Both the position numbers and the translations under genes were made by a program. Below, one piece after another: positions 1 through 11,097 of a stretch of DNA of 64,000 bases. The notes below the pieces were generated by a model, which saw nothing but the letters and a program-made list of their open reading frames with translations, had not been told where the DNA came from and ran no database searches. Position 1 is the stretch's first letter. The number at the start of each line of letters is the position of its first letter. Source of the stretch: an uncultured delta proteobacterium (GTDB lineage: Bacteria; Desulfobacterota; Binatia; UBA9968); assembly GCA_963755715.1 (NCBI GenBank), contig CAVWLW010000027.1, positions 96,001 through 160,000 of the forward strand, in the 5' to 3' direction.

Positions 1-79
1 GAATGGGGAACACGGCGGCGAATTCCGAATCGCATACGGTTTTCGCTGCCGCGGATGTTCGACGGAGAATCTTCTATGA
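1..79 (+). CDS. 3' end of an upstream gene (partial), C-terminus ...EHGGEFRIAYGFRCRGCSTENLL*
   Basis: Frame open from nt 2 to TGA 77-79, overlapping the next ATG (ATGA at 76-79); contains CxxC. Confidence 0.45.
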   Translation, partial: NGEHGGEFRIAYGFRCRGCSTENLL

Positions 80-597
80 ACTGGCTCAAAAAAGAAGAAT
101 GGTCGTGGTGGCAAGCAGGTTTATTGCTAGGGCTGCTTAACATCGCTGTGTTCTATACTGCGAATTACTACCTGTCGGTTTCGACTACTTTCTCACGCGC
201 CGCGGGCATGCTGGTTGGGCTGGTCGCGCCGGAACATGTAGCGGCGAACGCTTACTGGCAAAACGTCAAGCCGATTGTCGACTGGCAATTTATGCTCGTG
301 CTCGGCATCCCGATCGGCGCCTATCTGGCGGCACGGCTGAGTCAAAAAGCCCTTAGCTTTAGCGGCTCGCTTCCCGATATGTGGGTGAGCCGATTCGGCA
401 CGAGCAATACGCAGCGTTGGGTCGTCGGAATTCTCGGCGGCATTTTCGTCGGTTTCGGCGCGCGCCTGGCCGACGGCTGAACCAGCGGCCACGCCCTCAG
501 TGGAGGGCTTCAATTGGCAGTGAGCAGTTGGATTTTTCTGATCGCAATGATGATTTCAGGAACGATCATGGCGCGGCTGATTTTTCGGAGGGTGTAG
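76..597 (+). CDS. YeeE/YedE (TsuA/PmpA-like) sulfur transporter half-subunit, putative selenoprotein (TGA 478-480)
   Basis: GGAG RBS before ATG 76; hydrophobic helices; GFGARLADG-[TGA]-TSGHALSGG matches the family G-C-TSGH motif; frame continues to TAG 595-597. Confidence 0.88.
493..508 (+). promoter_or_regulatory. Putative bacterial SECIS hairpin for TGA 478-480
   Basis: GCCCTC-AGTG-GAGGGC, a perfect 6-bp stem starting 13 nt after the UGA. Confidence 0.6.
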
Positions 598-599
598 TT

Positions 600-1163
600 A
601 TGGGTCCACTGGAAATTACCGGTCCGGCGCGCCTCGTGCTCGGACTCGTCACGGGAATTCTGTTCGGCTTTATTCTACAAAAAGCACAAGTGACCAAGTA
701 TCAGAAGATCGTGTCCTTTTTCCGTTGGACCGATCTGACGGTGCAAAAAGTCATGTTCGCGGCGATCCTGGTTGGCATGGTCGGCGTCTACGCGTTGCAC
801 GATCTTGGTTTGGTCAATCTCCACATCAAACCGACGCTGCTCGGCGCCAATATTCTCGGCGGCCTGATCTTCGGCGTCGGCATGTTGCTCCTTGGATTTT
901 GACCCGGCACGTGTGCCGCGGCCTTCGGCGAAGGTCGCCTAGACGGTTTGTTTCGCGGCGTTCTAGGTATTCTGATCGGTGCCGGTCTCTACTCGGAAGT
1001 CTATCCGTTCATCGAGAATAATCTTCTCAAACTTGGCGATTATGGCAAGTTAACGATTCCTTCTTTACTTGGGGCGGGGCCCTGGTCAGTGATTGTGCCC
1101 TTCGTTTTAGTTTTCGGTGCCGTATTTTTTGGCTGTATCAACGTAAAGGTATGTGAAAGATAG
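600..1163 (+). CDS. YeeE/YedE (PmpB-like) sulfur transporter half-subunit, putative selenoprotein (TGA 900-902)
   Basis: GGAGG RBS, ATG 600; GLIFGVGMLLLGF-[TGA]-PGTCAAAFGEG matches the family G(Y/F)CPGT motif; ORF 948..1163 is in the same frame. Confidence 0.88.
918..938 (+). promoter_or_regulatory. Putative bacterial SECIS hairpin for TGA 900-902
   Basis: GCGGCCTTC-GGC-GAAGGTCGC (9 bp with one G-U) starting 16 nt after the UGA. Confidence 0.6.
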
Positions 1164-1941: not shown

Positions 1942-2012
1942 AATGGTCAATGGTCCGGTTCATTGCGGGTCGGTTTATTGCCAAACGAACGCTGTCGTCT
2001 ATCGGAGGTCCT

Positions 2013-3722
2013 ATGAAGGAGCAAAGTGAGTCGCGAACGACTGATTTACCCAGCATGGATGCCCGCCGACGTGTGCTGATTGTCGGTGGTGTCGCGGGGG
2101 GCGCTTCCTGCGCGGCGCGGCTAAGACGGCTCGACGAATCCGTGGAGATCTTGATGATCGATCGCGGTCCGTACGTCTCGTTCGCGAACTGCGGTCTGCC
2201 GTACTACGTCGGCAATGTGATTTCCGATGAACGCAAGCTGCTGGTGGCATCGCGGGAGATGTTTCACGAACGGTTCAATATCGATGTGCAAACCGACACC
2301 GAAGTCATCGGTATCGATCGCAGCATGCGCACGATCACAATGCGCGACGTGCACACCGGCAACACTCGCACGGAACGCTACGACGTGCTTGTCCTGTCGC
2401 CCGGCGCGGCGCCGATCCGTCCCGCGCTGCCGGGCGTGGACCTGCCCGGTGTCTTCGCGGTACGCACGATTCCCGACTCGCGCCGCATTCGTTCCTGGAT
2501 TACGGACCATAACGCCAGGAGTGCCGTTGTCGTCGGTGGCGGATTCATTGGCTTGGAGATGGTCGAGAACTTAATCCATCGCGAGTTGTCGGTGGCAATT
2601 TTAGAGAAACTGCCCCAGGTGATGCCTCCGCTGGATCCCGAGATGGCGGTGCCGCTCATGGAACACCTTGCCGCCAAGGGTGTGCGGCTCCATTTGGGTG
2701 ATGGGCTAGCGCGCATCGAAGAGCGCGCTGGCGCTGGTTTGGTCGTCGTGGCGGAGAGCTGCGCGCGTTTGCCCGCTGATTTAGTTATCCTTGCCATCGG
2801 TGTGCGGCCCGAAACCATGTTGGCCAAGGATGCCGGCCTGGAGATCGGTCCGCGTGGCGGCATTGTCGTTGATGCCCAGATGCGCACTTGCGATCCGAAC
2901 ATCTGGGCCGTGGGCGATGTCGTGGAAGTGCAGGACGTACTTACGGGTCAAGAAACGGTGCTGCCGCTCGCGGGACCAGCCAACCGCCAGGGACGAATCG
3001 CGGCTGAATCGATCGCCGGGCGCGCGCCGCGTTTCCGCGGCGTGCAAGCGACAGCTGTGGTTGGTGTGTTGGGACTGACCGTAGCTTCGACCGGCGCCAG
3101 TGAAAAGGGGCTACGGCGCGCCGGCGTCACGGGCTTTCAAAAAGTCTATCTTCACCCAGGTCATCACGCCGGTTACTATCCCGGTGCACGCGAGATTCAT
3201 CTGAAACTCGTGTTCTCGGTCGCCGACGGCCGCATTCTCGGGGCGCAAGCCGTGGGGTTCGAAGGCGTGGAGAAGCGCATCGATGTCATCGCGACCGCTA
3301 TTCAGTTCAATGGCACGGTTCATGATCTCGCCGAGGCCGAGCTGTGCTACGCGCCGCAGTTTGGTGCCGCAAAAGATCCGGTCAATCTTGCCGGCATGCT
3401 TGGCGAAAACGTTTTGAACGGTGACATGCCCGTGGCCGATTGGTCGGAGCTCGAGCAGACCGATGCTTTGTTGCTCGACGTGCGCGAGGTCGACGAGTTT
3501 AGCCGCGGGCACATCCCCAAGGCGATCAACCTGCCGCTCTCGCAGCTGCGCTCCCGTTACCGTGAGCTGCCGAATGCTCGCGATATCTGGGTGTGCTGCG
3601 CGGTCGGACAGCGCGCGTATTTCGCCACGCGTTTTCTGACCCAGCACGGCTATCGCTCACGGAATCTATCCGGAGGTTATACGACCTACAAAGCTCTGAA
3701 GGCGGCGGGGCTTGCGCCGTGA
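2013..3722 (+). CDS. CoA-disulfide/persulfide reductase with C-terminal rhodanese domain (CoADR-RHD / Npsr-like)
   Basis: GGVAGG FAD motif, SFANCGLPY redox Cys, GGGFIGLE NAD motif, YAPQF, rhodanese LLDVRE...CAVGQRA. Confidence 0.92.
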   Translation: MKEQSESRTTDLPSMDARRRVLIVGGVAGGASCAARLRRLDESVEILMIDRGPYVSFANCGLPYYVGNVISDERKLLVASREMFHERFNIDVQTDTEVIGIDRSMRTITMRDVHTGNTRTERYDVLVLSPGAAPIRPALPGVDLPGVFAVRTIPDSRRIRSWITDHNARSAVVVGGGFIGLEMVENLIHRELSVAILEKLPQVMPPLDPEMAVPLMEHLAAKGVRLHLGDGLARIEERAGAGLVVVAESCARLPADLVILAIGVRPETMLAKDAGLEIGPRGGIVVDAQMRTCDPNIWAVGDVVEVQDVLTGQETVLPLAGPANRQGRIAAESIAGRAPRFRGVQATAVVGVLGLTVASTGASEKGLRRAGVTGFQKVYLHPGHHAGYYPGAREIHLKLVFSVADGRILGAQAVGFEGVEKRIDVIATAIQFNGTVHDLAEAELCYAPQFGAAKDPVNLAGMLGENVLNGDMPVADWSELEQTDALLLDVREVDEFSRGHIPKAINLPLSQLRSRYRELPNARDIWVCCAVGQRAYFATRFLTQHGYRSRNLSGGYTTYKALKAAGLAP

Positions 3723-4962: not shown

Positions 4963-5349
4963 ATGAAAAGAAGGCTGGTTCTCACCGTTTTTTTTGCCTG
5001 CATGGCAACGTTTGCAGCAATCCTGCCGAGCTTTGCGTCTGCACAAAGCGCACCCGCGGCGGAAAAGCAGAAAATCGAGGCATTGATTAAACAGGTGGGC
5101 GATCTTAAAGACGCCAAGTTCGTTCGCAACGGGTGGACCTATGAACCCGCAACCGCAGTGCGCTTTCTGCGCGGCAAGTGGGAAGCCAACGATGCCGAAG
5201 TCAAAACCGCCCGGGATTTCATCGATAAGGTTGCCAGCGCGTCCGGCACGTCGGGCAAACCCTACCTGATTCGTTTCAAAGATGGTCGTGAAATCAAAAA
5301 CCAGGAATTCCTCCTCGCCGAACTGAAGAAGATCGAACCGAAGTTGTAA
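4963..5349 (+). CDS. Exported DUF5329-like protein
   Basis: Signal peptide; FVRNG..Y, FIDKVAS.S..SGKPY motifs. Confidence 0.75.
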   Translation: MKRRLVLTVFFACMATFAAILPSFASAQSAPAAEKQKIEALIKQVGDLKDAKFVRNGWTYEPATAVRFLRGKWEANDAEVKTARDFIDKVASASGTSGKPYLIRFKDGREIKNQEFLLAELKKIEPKL

Positions 5350-5553
5350 CGCGGCGCAGCGCTTTTTTTCCGTTCGACGACGGCGCGATGCTTAACGCCC
5401 GCTCATCCGGCGCGGCGACGCCCAGGTGTATACTCGATTCCCATTTCGCTACATTGTAGAATTTCGTGCAATGGAGCGGACCGCTTGCGGCCGGAGAATC
5501 GGTATTGTCGAGCTGTCACGTTCCGTTGTATCGCGGTTGGAGGAAGCAGAAAA

Positions 5554-5895
5554 ATGTCCGTTGCCCTGAGAACGACCTTGTTGCTTATCGGATCAAATAT
5601 ATTCATGACCTTTGCCTGGTACGCACACTTAAAAAATCTCAATGATCGGAAATGGTACATAGCGGCGCTCGCGAGCTGGGGCATCGCTCTGTTCGAGTAT
5701 CTGCTTCAGGTTCCGGCAAACCGCATCGGTTACACTCAGTTCAGCGTGGCGCAGTTAAAGATCACTCAGGAGGTGATCACTCTTTCAGTATTCGCACCTT
5801 TTGCCATGCTGTATCTGCGTGAACCGATGAAGCTCGATTATTTGTGGGCGGGACTGTGCTTGCTCGGGGCGGTCTATTTCATGTTTCGATCATAG
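5554..5895 (+). CDS. DMT family small membrane protein (DUF486)
   Basis: SNIFMTFAWYAHLK, SWGIALFEYLLQVPANRIG, QLKITQEVITL. Confidence 0.9.
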   Translation: MSVALRTTLLLIGSNIFMTFAWYAHLKNLNDRKWYIAALASWGIALFEYLLQVPANRIGYTQFSVAQLKITQEVITLSVFAPFAMLYLREPMKLDYLWAGLCLLGAVYFMFRS

Positions 5896-5922: not shown

Positions 5923-6864
5923 CTAGTGCCCCTGGCTCTCCAAAAACCGCTCGGCGTCAATCGCAGCCATACATCCCGTGCCTGCGGCCGTAACGGCCTG
6001 CCGATAGATGTGATCCTGCACGTCGCCGCAGGCAAAGACGCCGGGAACATTGGTCTTGGTGCCATCGTGGGTCAGAATGTAGCCGTTCGGATCCAATTCC
6101 AATTGACCAACGAAAAGCTTGCTATTCGGCTCGTGACCGATGGCGATAAAAAGACCGTCGGTCTTGAAATCTTCGGTCTTACCGGTCTTGACGTTGACAA
6201 ACCGCACGCCGGTCACTCCGCCTGCTTTCGGGTCGCCGTAGACTTCATCGACAATAGTATCCCACACAAATGCGATCTTGGGGTTTTTCTCTGCCCGGTC
6301 TTGCATGATCTTCGACGCGCGCAGTTGGTCCCGGCGATGTGCAACGGTTACTTTGGTGGCGAACTTCGTGAGAAACGTCGCTTCTTCCATCGCCGTGTCG
6401 CCGCCGCCGACGACAACAAGCTCTTTGTCTCTAAAGAAAAACCCGTCGCAAGTCGCGCAAGCCGAGACACCGTGGCCCATGAGCTTCATCTCCGATTCGA
6501 GACCGAGCAATTTTGCCGTCGCGCCGGTCGCAACGATTAAACTATCGCACGTGTAAGTATCTTTGCCGACAGCGAGTTGAAAGGACCGCTTCTTGAGGTC
6601 AACTGAGGTGACTTCACCAAACACGACTTCCGTGCCGAAGCGCACGGCCTGCTTCTTGAATTCCTCCATCAACTCCGGCCCCATAATTCCCTTGGGAAAA
6701 CCAGGATAATTCTCCACATCGGTTGTAATCGTAAGCTGGCCGCCGGGTTGAGATCCTTCGATCACCAGCGGTTGAAGATTGGCGCGCGCGGCATAAATTG
6801 CCGCCGTCAGTCCGGCGGCACCCGAACCCAAAATGATAACTCGGTAATGACTTTTCTTGTCCAT
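5923..6864 (-). CDS. trxB: Thioredoxin-disulfide reductase
   Basis: [31 protein letters not shown]. Confidence 0.97.
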
Positions 6865-7569: not shown

Positions 7570-8745
7570 ATGTTGACAATTTACCTCAAATCCGGCCGGG
7601 AGCGTCCCGTGCTCAACGGTCATCCTTGGATATTTTCCGGCGCCATCGAGAGAATCGAAGGAGCCGAAGATGACATCGGAGTGGCGGATGTCTTTGATTG
7701 CAAAAAGACTTGGCTCGCCCGCGGGCTTTACAATCCAAGATCGCAAATCCGCTTGCGCTTGCTTACCTGGCAGAAAGAAGAGATCGACAGCGAGTTCTTC
7801 ACGCGTCGGCTCTCCACCGCTCAGGCTTTCAGGAAACGGCACCTTGCTGCATCGACTAACGCCTACCGAATCGTCAACGCCGAAGGCGATTTTCTCCCAG
7901 GATTGATTGTCGATCGCTACGCCGATTTTCTCGTTTGTCAATTTTTCACCGCCGGCATGGCGCTGTTCAAAGACGACATTGCCGAAGCACTGGGCGCTCT
8001 CGAACCCAGCGTCGCGATCTTCGAGCGCAGCGAAGGGCGGGTCGGAGACGAAGAAGGCCTCGACCCTGCCATCGGAGTACTGCGCGGCGACGCGCCGCCG
8101 GAGGCAATTACTGTCGAGGAAAATGGCTATAAGTTTCTCGTCGATATTCGCCGTGGGCAGAAAACCGGCTTTTTTTTGGACCAGCGCGATAACCGGGCGT
8201 TTCTATTGACGCTGGCGCACGATCGCAGTGTATTGAACTGTTTTTCGTTCAGCGGCGCTTTCTCGGTTTACGCCTTCGGCGGCAAAGCGAAAGAAGTCGT
8301 CACTCTCGATTCGTCGAAACCCGCCTTGGAACTGGCCGAGCAGAATTTAGCATTGAACGGCTTCGCCGAGGCGCCAGGAGAGCTGCTGAAAGGCGACGCC
8401 TTCGCTTATCTAAAAGAAATCGAACGAAAGTTCGACTTGATCGTGTTGGACCCGCCGTCTTTGGCTCCTAAACGAAGCAACGTGGACGCCGCCACCGGCG
8501 GCTATAAATTTCTCAATCTGCACGCGCTCAAGCATCTTAACCCAGGCGGTCTGCTCCTGACCTTCTCCTGCTCCCAGCATCTTTCAATAGATCTTTTCCA
8601 AAAAGTCGTCTTCGGCGCGGCCGTCGATGCGCGGCGCAAAGTCACCGTAATCAAAAGGCTCGGCCAGCCGATCGATCATCCCGTTAGCCTGCATCATCCC
8701 GAAGGCGAATACCTCAAAGGGCTTGCGCTCCGCGCCCTGGACTAG
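7570..8745 (+). CDS. rlmI: 23S rRNA m5C1962 methyltransferase RlmI-like
   Basis: PUA-like GHPWIFS, EGDFLPGLIVDRY, GQKTGFFLDQRDNR, DPPS, FSCS, EGEYLKG. Confidence 0.88.
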   Translation: MLTIYLKSGRERPVLNGHPWIFSGAIERIEGAEDDIGVADVFDCKKTWLARGLYNPRSQIRLRLLTWQKEEIDSEFFTRRLSTAQAFRKRHLAASTNAYRIVNAEGDFLPGLIVDRYADFLVCQFFTAGMALFKDDIAEALGALEPSVAIFERSEGRVGDEEGLDPAIGVLRGDAPPEAITVEENGYKFLVDIRRGQKTGFFLDQRDNRAFLLTLAHDRSVLNCFSFSGAFSVYAFGGKAKEVVTLDSSKPALELAEQNLALNGFAEAPGELLKGDAFAYLKEIERKFDLIVLDPPSLAPKRSNVDAATGGYKFLNLHALKHLNPGGLLLTFSCSQHLSIDLFQKVVFGAAVDARRKVTVIKRLGQPIDHPVSLHHPEGEYLKGLALRALD

Positions 8746-8824: not shown

Positions 8825-9517
8825 ATGGCTTCGTACCAGACCATCAAGGATTGGCCCGAGGAAGATCGGCCGCGGGAAAAACTTCTGGCCAAGGGAGCGC
8901 AATCGCTCAGTGAAACCGAATTGCTGGCGATCATCTTGCGTAACGGCAACGCCAGCACGGGCGAGAGCGCTATCGATCATGCGCGCCTTTTGTTGAATCA
9001 ATTCGGCGGCCTGAAGGGCATCGAAGAAGCCTCCTTCGGCGAACTCGGTAAAGTCAAAGGGATCGGGCCGGCAAAAGTCGCCCAACTCAAAGCCTGTCTC
9101 GAAATCGCCAAACGGGTCAGCAGTCAAAAATGGGAAACCGGCCAACCCCTTCGTTCGGCGGAAGACGTCTATCATCATTTTCGCGACAATCTCGGGACTG
9201 AAAAGCGCGAGCTTTTCTATGTCGTGCTGCTCAACAATAAAAACCGCAAGATTCGCGAAGTAAAAATCTCCGAGGGCTCGCTCACGGCCTCGCTGGTCCA
9301 TCCGCGCGAAGTTTACAATCCCGTGATCCGCGAGTCTGCCGCGGCGGTGATTTTCGTCCATAATCATCCGAGCGGCGACCCGGCGCCGAGCCCGGAAGAC
9401 ATCGACATCACCCGGCGCTTGAAAGAAGTCGGTGACGTCATGGGCGTGCGGGTTCTCGATCACGTGGTGATCGGCCGCGACCGCTTCTTTAGCTTCAACG
9501 ACAAAGGAATGTTGTAA
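8825..9517 (+). CDS. radC: RadC family JAB-domain protein
   Basis: DRPREKLL, HhH VKGIGPAK, VHPREV, HNHPSGDP.PS.ED, DHVVIG. Confidence 0.95.
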   Translation: MASYQTIKDWPEEDRPREKLLAKGAQSLSETELLAIILRNGNASTGESAIDHARLLLNQFGGLKGIEEASFGELGKVKGIGPAKVAQLKACLEIAKRVSSQKWETGQPLRSAEDVYHHFRDNLGTEKRELFYVVLLNNKNRKIREVKISEGSLTASLVHPREVYNPVIRESAAAVIFVHNHPSGDPAPSPEDIDITRRLKEVGDVMGVRVLDHVVIGRDRFFSFNDKGML

Positions 9518-9595
9518 CCGGCGCCCTTCCCACTCGTTTGCGCGAACCGCTACCAAACTGTGCTGTCGATTGTGCAAAGTTACAATGGAGTTTTG

Positions 9596-9624
9596 TTGAC
9601 ATCACCGCGAGCCGCGTTTATTCT
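9596..9624 (+). promoter_or_regulatory. Sigma70-type promoter of the M23 peptidase gene
   Basis: TTGACA-17 nt-TATTCT. Confidence 0.5.
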
Positions 9625-9669
9625 AGCGCTGGAGCGGTTCCCTAATCATATCTTTGATTCATTTAATCC

Positions 9670-11097
9670 ATGAGCGCGCTTGAATTTGGCAAACCCAGGC
9701 GACGGTTTGTGCCGGGTCGCGGCCTCGTCTATCTGGTATTGGTCATCCTCATCATCGGAGGCGGCTACCTTTTGGTACCCCGTTTCGAATGGCGCCGCCC
9801 GCAGATCAAGATCACCCCGGATATCGACACGATCGGCCTCGCCCCGGTGGAGATCGAAGTCGACGAGCCGGGCACGGGCTTAAAATCCTTCGCCGTGGTG
9901 TTGATCGCCGGCGGGACCGAGCACACGCTGGTTTCTGAGCAGTACGATCAGCCTTTAGCGCAAAAGAAATTTACCGTGGCTTTGTCGTCGAAGCTCACCG
10001 GCTTGAAAGAAGGGCCGGCCGTGCTGCGCGTGACCGCTCGTGACCGGTCGTTGTGGAATTTTTTTCGCGGCAATGAGTCCGTCGTTCAAAAGAATTTGAC
10101 CATTGACATCACGCCGCCGTCCCTGGAGCTGGTTGCGGACGATCGTTATGTCAACTTTGGCGGCGTCGGCGTGATCGTTTACAAACCGTCGCCCGATACG
10201 ATCACTTCCGGCATAAAGATCGGTAATTACTTTTTTCCGGGCTACAAAGGCCAAATTAAGGAACATCCGGATCATTACTTGGTTTTTTTCGCGCACCCTT
10301 ACAATGTCCCGGAGACGGAAAAGGCGTCGCTCGTGGCCACCGATAAAGCCGGCAATAGGCGGGAAATGAAACTCGTCTACGAGCTCAAGAATGTAAAGTA
10401 CAAAAAGAGCACGATCCAAATCTCCGAAGATTTCGTCCAGCAAAAGGTCGCGCCGTTGTTAAATGACGTGGGCGCGCGCCAAGGAAGCCCGAAAGATATT
10501 TTTATCAAGGTGAACAAAAATCTGCGCAAAGAGAACGAAGATAAAATCCGCTCGATCACCGAGAAGTCGACGCCGACCATTCTCTGGCACGGCGCCTTTA
10601 GCCAGCTCACGAATTCAAAGGTAGAAGCGAATTTCGCCGACGCGCGCACTTACATTTACAACAACGAAGCGATCGATACGGCGTATCATGTCGGCTACGA
10701 CTTATCGGTCACAAAGCATTACCCGGCCGAAGCGGCCAACAGCGGTGTCGTCGCGTTCGTCGGTGATTTGGGAATCTACGGCAACACGGTCATCATCGAT
10801 CATGGCTTGGGGCTTTTCACCCTCTACTCTCACTTAAGCGCCATCGACGTCAAAGTGGGCGACCCCATCAAGCAACAACAGCCCATCGGCAAAACCGGCG
10901 AAACCGGGCTTGCCGTCGGCGACCATCTTCATTTTGGCGTCTACCTGAACGGCCTACCCGTGCTCCCGGTCGAATGGTGGGACCAAAAATGGATCAATGA
11001 CAACGTCCAACCTAAACTGGATGGTTCGAGCGGAGAGAATATCGAGCAGGCCAAAGGCACCCCTCCGCGCAAGGTCGCGCGCAAACGGAAGAGATAG
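9670..11097 (+). CDS. M23 family metallopeptidase, membrane-anchored
   Basis: N-terminal TM; HVGYD, YGNTVIIDHG, TLYSHL, HLHFG. Confidence 0.9.
   Translation: MSALEFGKPRRRFVPGRGLVYLVLVILIIGGGYLLVPRFEWRRPQIKITPDIDTIGLAPVEIEVDEPGTGLKSFAVVLIAGGTEHTLVSEQYDQPLAQKKFTVALSSKLTGLKEGPAVLRVTARDRSLWNFFRGNESVVQKNLTIDITPPSLELVADDRYVNFGGVGVIVYKPSPDTITSGIKIGNYFFPGYKGQIKEHPDHYLVFFAHPYNVPETEKASLVATDKAGNRREMKLVYELKNVKYKKSTIQISEDFVQQKVAPLLNDVGARQGSPKDIFIKVNKNLRKENEDKIRSITEKSTPTILWHGAFSQLTNSKVEANFADARTYIYNNEAIDTAYHVGYDLSVTKHYPAEAANSGVVAFVGDLGIYGNTVIIDHGLGLFTLYSHLSAIDVKVGDPIKQQQPIGKTGETGLAVGDHLHFGVYLNGLPVLPVEWWDQKWINDNVQPKLDGSSGENIEQAKGTPPRKVARKRKR

Follow-up and report, generated by a model that had tools for sequence, protein, structure and literature searches.

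Predicted selenocysteine at both pore-cysteine positions of a split YeeE/YedE-type transporter from a Binatia bacterium and its relatives

The 64,000-nt stretch of DNA analysed here (the window: positions 96,001 to 160,000 of contig CAVWLW010000027.1, GenBank assembly GCA_963755715.1, from an uncultured delta proteobacterium placed in Binatia, UBA9968) opens with two adjacent forward-strand genes, A and B, which appear to encode the two halves of a YeeE/YedE-type membrane transporter and are each interrupted by an in-frame TGA. With translation table 11, the open reading frames (ORFs) stop at both TGAs (55..480 and 381..902). Translated with TGA as selenocysteine (Sec, U), gene A (76..597) runs from an ATG at 76 to a TAG at 595-597 and yields 173 aa (...ARLADG-U-TSGHALSGG...), its UGA at 478..480 specifying residue 135 in the motif G-U-T-S-G. 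Gene B (600..1163) likewise runs from an ATG at 600 to a TAG at 1161-1163 and yields 187 aa (...LLGF-U-PGTCAAAFGEG...), with the UGA at 900..902 specifying residue 101 in the motif F-U-P-G-T-C. Neither frame contains a further in-frame stop. By inspection of the sequence, a Shine-Dalgarno-like GGAG (64..67) lies 8 nt 5' of the ATG of gene A, and a Shine-Dalgarno GGAGG for gene B (587..591) lies within the end of gene A. The two genes are separated by a 2-nt gap, and the position of this second signal inside A, together with the start of B at 600, makes their translational coupling likely.

Both products match Pfam PF04143 (Sulf_transp; profile length 310, gathering score 27 bits) above the cut-off, gene A with 88.2 bits over profile positions 171-307 and gene B with 58.1 bits over positions 12-147; a match of B to DUF6691 (24.9 bits) falls under that family's cut-off of 27. 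Because of these profile ranges, A corresponds to the C-terminal and B to the N-terminal half of a fused YeeE chain. When aligned by phmmer with sequences from the PDB, residues 69-172 of A correspond to residues 239-330 of Spirochaeta thermophila YeeE (StYeeE) and residues 14-132 of B to residues 4-126, so that Cys293 is matched by U135 of A and Cys91 by U101 of B; the third StYeeE cysteine, Cys22, falls on Thr32 of B. In StYeeE, Cys293 touches the bound thiosulfate on the periplasmic side, all three cysteines border the thinnest region of the protein at about 7 Å from one another, and the C91A and C293A substitutions, unlike C22A, abolish function (PMC7449682). Adjacent genes for a C-half and an N-half, with one conserved Cys position in each, make up the split PmpA/PmpB type, A being the PmpA-type and B the PmpB-type half, and the A-then-B order holds in every genome and metagenome locus in which both genes are readable. 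An earlier note, made from this DNA alone, had described a split YeeE/YedE pair of the PmpA/PmpB kind, broken by TGAs at 478-480 and 900-902 on the conserved family cysteines and continuing in frame to TAG stops at 597 and 1163; the ORF ends, the read-through translations, the Pfam matches and the phmmer alignments agree with that description throughout.

The genome of the window (7.4 Mb in 76 contigs, 93.6% complete) contains the components needed to insert Sec. Profile searches identified selA (541 bits), the wing domain of selB (77.7 bits, in a 654-aa open frame adjoining selA) and selD, the last in two frames (212.8 and 155.4 bits) and with one in-frame TGA of its own at the expected ...AAG-U-AAK... 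site. A tRNA-Sec was found with Rfam (76.7 bits) and reported by ARAGORN as tRNA-SeC with the anticodon TCA. The window lies on contig C27 of this genome, and selA, selB and selD on contig C3. SelA was detected in all five of the other TGA-bearing genomes tested. TGA also serves as an ordinary stop, ending 7 of the 31 window ORFs of at least 300 aa, which implies site-specific recoding rather than a changed code. An alternative genetic code was considered and rejected, since TGA ends ordinary ORFs and the residue that homologues carry at the two sites is Cys rather than Trp or Gly.

Our survey of orthologues covered the 80 genome-contig loci found with gene B and the 80 nearest metagenome loci. 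Both codons are TGA in 7 of the genome loci, among whose record titles are Binatia, 'delta proteobacterium', Deltaproteobacteria and candidate division NC10; one more has TGA in A, with B beyond the end of the contig, and two, one from NC10 and one from Caldilineaceae (48% identity), combine Cys in A with TGA in B. The remaining 70 genome loci carry TGC or TGT at each readable site, save for one A site. The metagenome loci comprise 50 TGA/TGA (A/B) pairs, 9 Cys/TGA and 8 Cys/Cys pairs, 11 loci whose B has TGA while A lies beyond the contig, and 2 odd ones. Counted by site, TGA occupies the B position in 71 of the 80 metagenome loci and the A position in 50 of the 69 in which A is readable; Sec is thus commoner at the B site than at the A site in this clade. 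Across the 58 TGA-bearing loci, gene A orthologues are 66-98% identical. Two members of the same genus illustrate the alternation at close range, one (G018, 96% identical) being TGA/TGA and the other (G008, 84%) TGT/TGT. A complete Geobacteraceae genome (G053) adds the opposite mixed form, with TGA in the A-type gene (G-U-P-S-G) and Cys in the adjoining B-type gene, so that all four Sec/Cys combinations occur. As close orthologues carry either TGA or TGC/TGT at the same two codons, three odd codons excepted, the TGAs are not there by chance.

The odd codons are GGC at the A site of L068, GGA at the A site of L143, one base away from TGA, and GAC at the B site of L216, which aligns poorly there; these loci may represent errors, alignment slips or inactive copies. 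Two further irregularities were seen among the orthologues. The Cys/Cys A gene of G008 (locus L021, G008:C63) has an in-frame TAG at codon 11, where the window has TGG (Trp11), which may reflect an error in sequencing, a broken gene or a true start that lies later, and the B-type gene of the Geobacteraceae genome (locus L127, G053:C1:1924676-1928158) matches in two frames, 2007-2309 and 2264-2473, and looks frameshifted.

For a quick tree by maximum likelihood, A and B were joined in 126 rows and the Sec column was coded as a gap. One clade of 64 rows, with a Shimodaira-Hasegawa-like approximate likelihood ratio (SH-aLRT) support of 100, takes in every one of the 45 complete TGA/TGA pairs, together with 8 of the 9 Cys/TGA pairs and with 9 that are Cys/Cys. 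Cys/Cys lineages are basal within this clade, and the Cys/Cys pair of G008, along with a metagenome row identical to it, falls among TGA/TGA pairs. At least 6 changes of state are required on the tree for the A site and 4 for the B site, gains and losses of Sec being indistinguishable because the tree is unrooted. The B proteins share a second feature, namely a cysteine four residues past the Sec (U-x-x-x-C; in the window Cys105, encoded by TGT at 912..914). This +4 Cys (U-P-G-T/S-C) is present in 81 of 81 TGA-bearing B matches, compared with 29 of 90 Cys-bearing ones, which means that B-site Sec is seen only in the subgroup with the second cysteine. The stretch itself is present in soil, rhizosphere, sediment and mine-drainage sequencing runs from 11 studies, and the Sec-bearing pair is widespread in Binatia-like and NC10-like bacteria of soils and sediments.

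Selection beyond the TGAs was estimated as the ratio of nonsynonymous to synonymous substitution rates (dN/dS, Nei-Gojobori) between the window and eight orthologues, over the 38 codons past the TGA of A and the 64 codons past that of B. In these eight comparisons, the ratio was 0.00-0.25 in A and 0.07-0.15 in B, values similar to those obtained before the TGAs (0.03-0.09 where dS was unsaturated), and the orthologue translations are collinear and family-like through to the end. The last 12 or so residues of B in the window differ from those of relatives owing to small indels at a T-run near 1125-1145. At 1120-1163, the tail of B reads ...VFFGCINVKVCER, where relative L020 has ...LFWLEKKGL, the difference consisting of a 1-nt gap at the T-run plus small insertions, with the TAG placed 9 nt beyond the TGA of the relatives.

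These data bear directly on the possibility that the TGAs are true stops, which would make the locus a decaying or truncated gene pair or a set of four small ORFs. Gene callers do end there, and both the indels in the tail of B and the selD frameshift discussed below would be in keeping with this; nevertheless, both TGAs are retained together in the 50 metagenome and 7 genome loci at 66-98% identity, purifying selection continues past them without any other in-frame stop, and they fall exactly on the two essential Cys columns of the family. We therefore regard true termination as very improbable, and A and B as almost certainly real genes that are read through at UGA.

The independent assemblies address a further alternative, that the TGAs arose by sequencing or assembly error. 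We compared the window with Logan contigs (rather than raw reads) from two DNA-library and two RNA-library runs belonging to four studies. Contigs of all four runs span 478-480, and those of two (X3 and X15) span 900-902; no change at either TGA is among the differences listed, whereas 474 (C>T) and 483 (C>G), the third-codon positions to either side of the first TGA, vary. The presence of a contig in an RNA-library run does not imply transcription. Likely indels elsewhere in the assembly, in selD and in the tail of B, lend this alternative some colour, but the TGAs are substitutions rather than indels and recur in many independent assemblies as well as in the contigs of these four runs, and we assign error a negligible probability. 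The tests that the earlier note had proposed, for Sec machinery in the genome, conservation of TGA in relatives, its persistence in reads (assessed here on the contigs of other runs) and purifying selection past both codons, all turned out in favour of read-through, with the qualification that selD is frameshifted in the assembly.

A bacterial Sec insertion sequence (SECIS) is a stem-loop located shortly downstream of the UGA with a G in its apical loop, as formalized in the bSECISearch criteria. Folding revealed such a hairpin at each site. Past the UGA of A, GCCCUC-AGUG-GAGGGC (493..508, beginning after 12 nt) forms a 6-bp stem with the loop AGUG, which starts 18 nt past the UGA; past that of B, GCGGCCUUC-GGC-GAAGGUCGC (918..938, beginning after 15 nt) forms a 9-bp stem with the loop GGC, which starts 24 nt past the UGA. 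In NC10-like forms, the hairpin at site A is a 7-bp variant shifted by one register. Whole 63-nt folds past the UGAs were no more stable than shuffled sequences (z of -1.22 and +0.88) and hence uninformative, which is why local hairpins were compared between TGA and Cys forms instead. At site A, the median local minimum free energy was -11.5 kcal/mol in 36 unique TGA forms versus -4.6 kcal/mol in 15 unique Cys forms, and at site B -14.2 kcal/mol in 31 unique TGA forms versus -9.8 kcal/mol in 7 unique Cys forms. In several Cys forms, the peptide ALSGG is kept but spelled with alternative codons that abolish the stem. Among the 31 unique TGA forms of site B, 90.7% of 279 cells are paired, a share that drops to 41-53% on sliding the partners, and one U-A pair is replaced by a compensatory C-G pair in 3 of the 31 unique rows. 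The B gene from Caldilineaceae, in which TGA occurs outside the main TGA clade, has a hairpin of its own, GCCGCC-GGU-GGCGGC, 12 nt past the UGA. An Rfam scan of positions 1-1400 gave no match at E<=1; to our knowledge, none is to be expected for a bacterial SECIS.

Several aspects of the evidence count against Sec as the residue inserted at the two UGAs. That reading is a computational one, and the one-sided Mann-Whitney p values for the greater hairpin stability of TGA over Cys forms, 2e-6 at A and 3e-5 at B, are overstated because related sequences were treated as independent. The hairpin is weak (-3.8 kcal/mol) in one TGA class of site A, comprising 4 loci, and two Cys classes retain a strong one. 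Covariation at site B is thin, with a two-sided change in 1 of the 9 pairs and a both-sides measure that was reached by 129 of 500 shuffles. As to the machinery, SelA is also present in five of the five Cys-form genomes tested, so that it does not separate TGA from Cys forms, and selD (C3, about 71086-72013, minus strand; loci L012 and L013) is frameshifted around C3:71650-71667. An indel in the assembly is the probable cause; were the frameshift real, this strain would be unable to make Sec.

The computational nature of the case and the modest covariation of the hairpins are also what could be said for decoding of UGA by other means, for example near-cognate read-through as Trp or Cys, or a local, SelB-independent recoding. 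Yet Cys, the usual partner of Sec, is the sole alternative at these sites in close orthologues, odd codons aside; the Sec machinery is complete and the hairpins stand at the positions expected of a bacterial SECIS; and TGA terminates ordinary ORFs of the same window. We consider non-Sec decoding highly improbable, and it can be held with considerable confidence that both UGAs are Sec codons, as the sequence comparisons indicate. Insertion would then proceed through the SelB/SECIS pathway, the downstream hairpin with the G in its loop recruiting SelB and Sec-tRNA(Sec) at either UGA.

Downstream of the pair, at 1950..3722 on the forward strand, lies a gene for a 590-aa fusion of a pyridine-nucleotide disulfide oxidoreductase and a rhodanese (Pfam Pyr_redox_2, Pyr_redox_dim and Rhodanese). 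A copy with 78% identity lies downstream of the TGA/TGA pair in locus L037, and this protein, of the coenzyme A-disulfide/persulfide reductase type, is a possible functional partner of the A-B pair. A small rhodanese gene directly precedes A in many of the Cys/Cys loci from other phyla.

Other features of the neighbourhood are recorded here for completeness. The ORF that follows B (1387-1941; 184 aa) has no Pfam match; it shares 67-83% identity with the C-terminal third of an ORF of 476-490 aa found upstream of A-B in loci L031 and L034, and its partial length and its position downstream of B suggest a rearrangement remnant. Upstream of the pair, L018 (G000:C27:84001-100000) contains three related minus-strand ORFs, two long ones and one short fragment (4973-5893, 8234-8551 and 9484-10296), which share long near-identical peptide stretches (...KVCSWLKKTTCAKVVCESKSDWN...), and about 1 kb without a long ORF separates them from gene A. 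Five kb downstream of the pair, on the minus strand at 5923-6864, a 313-aa thioredoxin-reductase-like flavoprotein (Pyr_redox_2) adjoins DUF5329, DMT_6 and isochorismatase-family genes.

It is probable, in our assessment, that A and B constitute a heterodimeric sulfur-family transporter of the PmpA/PmpB (YedE1E2) type in which the pore cysteine has been replaced by Sec in both halves. Homology to the two halves of the single-chain YeeE structure, and the heterodimer proposed for PmpA/PmpB, make it highly probable that the two proteins act as one heterodimer. This would be pseudo-symmetric and, by homology, would enclose the hourglass-shaped pore of YeeE, with the Sec of A at the outer binding site (Cys293) and that of B at the centre (Cys91), some 7 Å apart along a narrow pathway. 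From the rhodanese genes in the context of the pair and of its relatives, and from the sulfur uptake reported for YedE1E2, we lean slightly towards a sulfane-sulfur-bearing anion (thiosulfate, polysulfide or persulfide) as the class of substrate that the pair would carry across the membrane. The two selenolates would then bind sulfur transiently as nucleophiles, and not merely as hydrogen-bond donors, with Cys105 of B as a candidate resolving thiol.

Sec usually takes the place of Cys at redox-active, nucleophilic positions. This general role and the repeated use of Sec at both pore sites suggest transient Se-S chemistry with sulfane sulfur, and the number of state changes, at least 4 at the Cys91 site and at least 6 at the Cys293 site, argues for chemistry at both. 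Whether the cysteines of YeeE-family proteins only hydrogen-bond thiosulfate or hand sulfur on covalently is disputed (PMC11582611). One possibility, which we put forward tentatively, is a covalent chalcogen relay, in which sulfane sulfur (or selenium) would pass as Se-S adducts from the outer Sec of A to the central Sec of B, with Cys105 as the resolving thiol, and be released inside to a rhodanese or a persulfide reductase. If such a relay operates, transport in the YeeE family would be group translocation rather than diffusion guided by hydrogen bonds, and the pair would be the first transporter with a pathway lined by Sec from two different subunits. In either event, the recurrence of Sec at both pore sites makes the choice between hydrogen bonding and covalent transfer testable.

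Some results sit uneasily with this account of the transported substrate. Being anionic at neutral pH, a selenolate would be a poor fit to the published hydrogen-bond model for thiosulfate, which argues for either covalent chemistry or another substrate. Scores against the NCBIfam models are far under the cut-offs, both for TsuA (NF041049, 45.3/50.1 bits versus 400; NF052577, 27.7/32.7 versus 645) and for YedE/FdhT (NF033796, 38.2/34.3 bits versus 350; TIGR04112, 29.9 versus 200), and a substrate is therefore not transferable from those proteins. TGA/TGA pairs have no conserved neighbour save the reductase-rhodanese in the window and L037, so that no operon-level inference can be drawn, and no TusA/YeeD-like gene is present among the ORFs scanned with Pfam up to 12 kb downstream or among those listed upstream, the latter without a Pfam scan.

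The main rival to sulfur transport is a selenium-specific or metal-related role, in which Sec is real but the pair handles selenium species (selenite, selenide or selenosulfate), a role proposed for YedE, or acts on metals or metalloids as a membrane device for redox reactions or detoxification, the two Sec residues then being ligands. YedE-type relatives have been tied to selenium use (PMC5322559), and a 2026 review groups transporters that contain Sec under resistance to metals and metalloids (PMC13188914); in the same direction point the matches to NF033796 and TIGR04112, weak and sub-threshold as they are, and the use of selenium by every TGA-bearing genome tested. On the other hand, those YedE-model scores lie a long way below their cut-offs, the pair does not stand beside selA, selB and selD, and the rhodanese genes next to Cys/Cys orthologues and distant relatives, along with the rhodanese-fused reductase in the window, point to sulfur. 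We judge this role unlikely, and continue to favour a sulfur-family transporter.

With regard to annotation, the earlier note had anticipated that the pair would be mis-called, and this is indeed the case. A search of protein collections returned full-length entries for the Cys forms, while the TGA forms appeared as entries of 124 or 225 aa, one of them from NCBI, that begin in the wrong frame inside gene A, end at ...LLLGF, at the TGA of B, and go under the name of 'hypothetical protein' or else of 'uncharacterized membrane protein YedE/YeeE'. Because of these wrong starts and early ends, both proteins are absent from protein catalogues and from selenoproteome counts, and a common environmental gene pair is systematically mis-called. 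The note had also cautioned that Sec-containing YeeE proteins might have been described before, rightly so: two reviews (PMC13188914, PMC9312934) list Sec-containing YeeE/YedE proteins, for which the 2026 review gives the motif GUxSG with one Sec. The available text of that review contains no motif like F-U-P-G and no double-Sec pair (PMC13188914). A full-text literature search on selenoproteins of the YeeE/YedE family likewise returned neither a second Sec site nor a double-Sec pair. The main texts of the 2008 GOS (Global Ocean Sampling) and 2016 ISME J papers cited for the family do not mention YeeE/YedE, and their supplements may describe a second site. Within the scope of these searches and texts, we regard B-site Sec and the double-Sec heterodimer with moderate certainty as unreported so far.

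Among the closest known systems are the split pairs PmpA/PmpB, from Serratia sp. ATCC 39006, and YedE1/YedE2, from Cupriavidus pinatubonensis, compared here by their descriptions. PmpA and PmpB correspond to the C- and N-terminal halves of YeeE, PmpB carrying the equivalent of Cys91 and PmpA that of Cys293, and have been proposed to form a heterodimer (Li et al. 2024, PMC11582611); YedE1E2, a homologue of PmpAB, has been reported to take up zero-valent sulfur, and its genes co-occur with those for rhodanese, persulfide dioxygenase and sulfide:quinone oxidoreductase (PMC10812762). The A-B pair resembles both in consisting of adjacent split halves, and YedE1E2 also in having rhodanese domains nearby. 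It differs from them in carrying Sec at both conserved Cys positions, in the extra Cys four residues past the Sec of B and in the greater length of its subunits, 173 and 187 aa as opposed to about 130-140 aa (PMC11582611, PMC10812762). The thiosulfate importer TsuA/YeeE of S. thermophila and E. coli (PDB 6LEO and 8J4C) and SoxT belong to the same fold family, and both Sec residues occupy the positions of the essential Cys91 and Cys293 of TsuA. However, TsuA is a fused chain of 330-350 aa with a third cysteine (Cys22) and a TusA-like partner, YeeD, whereas the A-B pair is split and has Thr32 at the Cys22 position.

Compared with the catalogued Sec-containing YeeE/YedE proteins, gene A has the same motif (G-U-T-S-G) and the same Pfam family, and on these sequence features it is a member of that kind (GUxSG). 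The Geobacteraceae pair, with TGA in A and Cys in B, fits the catalogued single-Sec form. What sets the present pair apart is the second Sec site, located in the partner subunit B; the 2026 review counts families as distinct subfamilies when their Sec positions differ (PMC13188914). The pair would thereby add a second site to a catalogued selenoprotein family and make both subunits of one membrane complex selenoproteins, while the four Sec/Cys combinations found among its relatives provide ready-made natural mutants.

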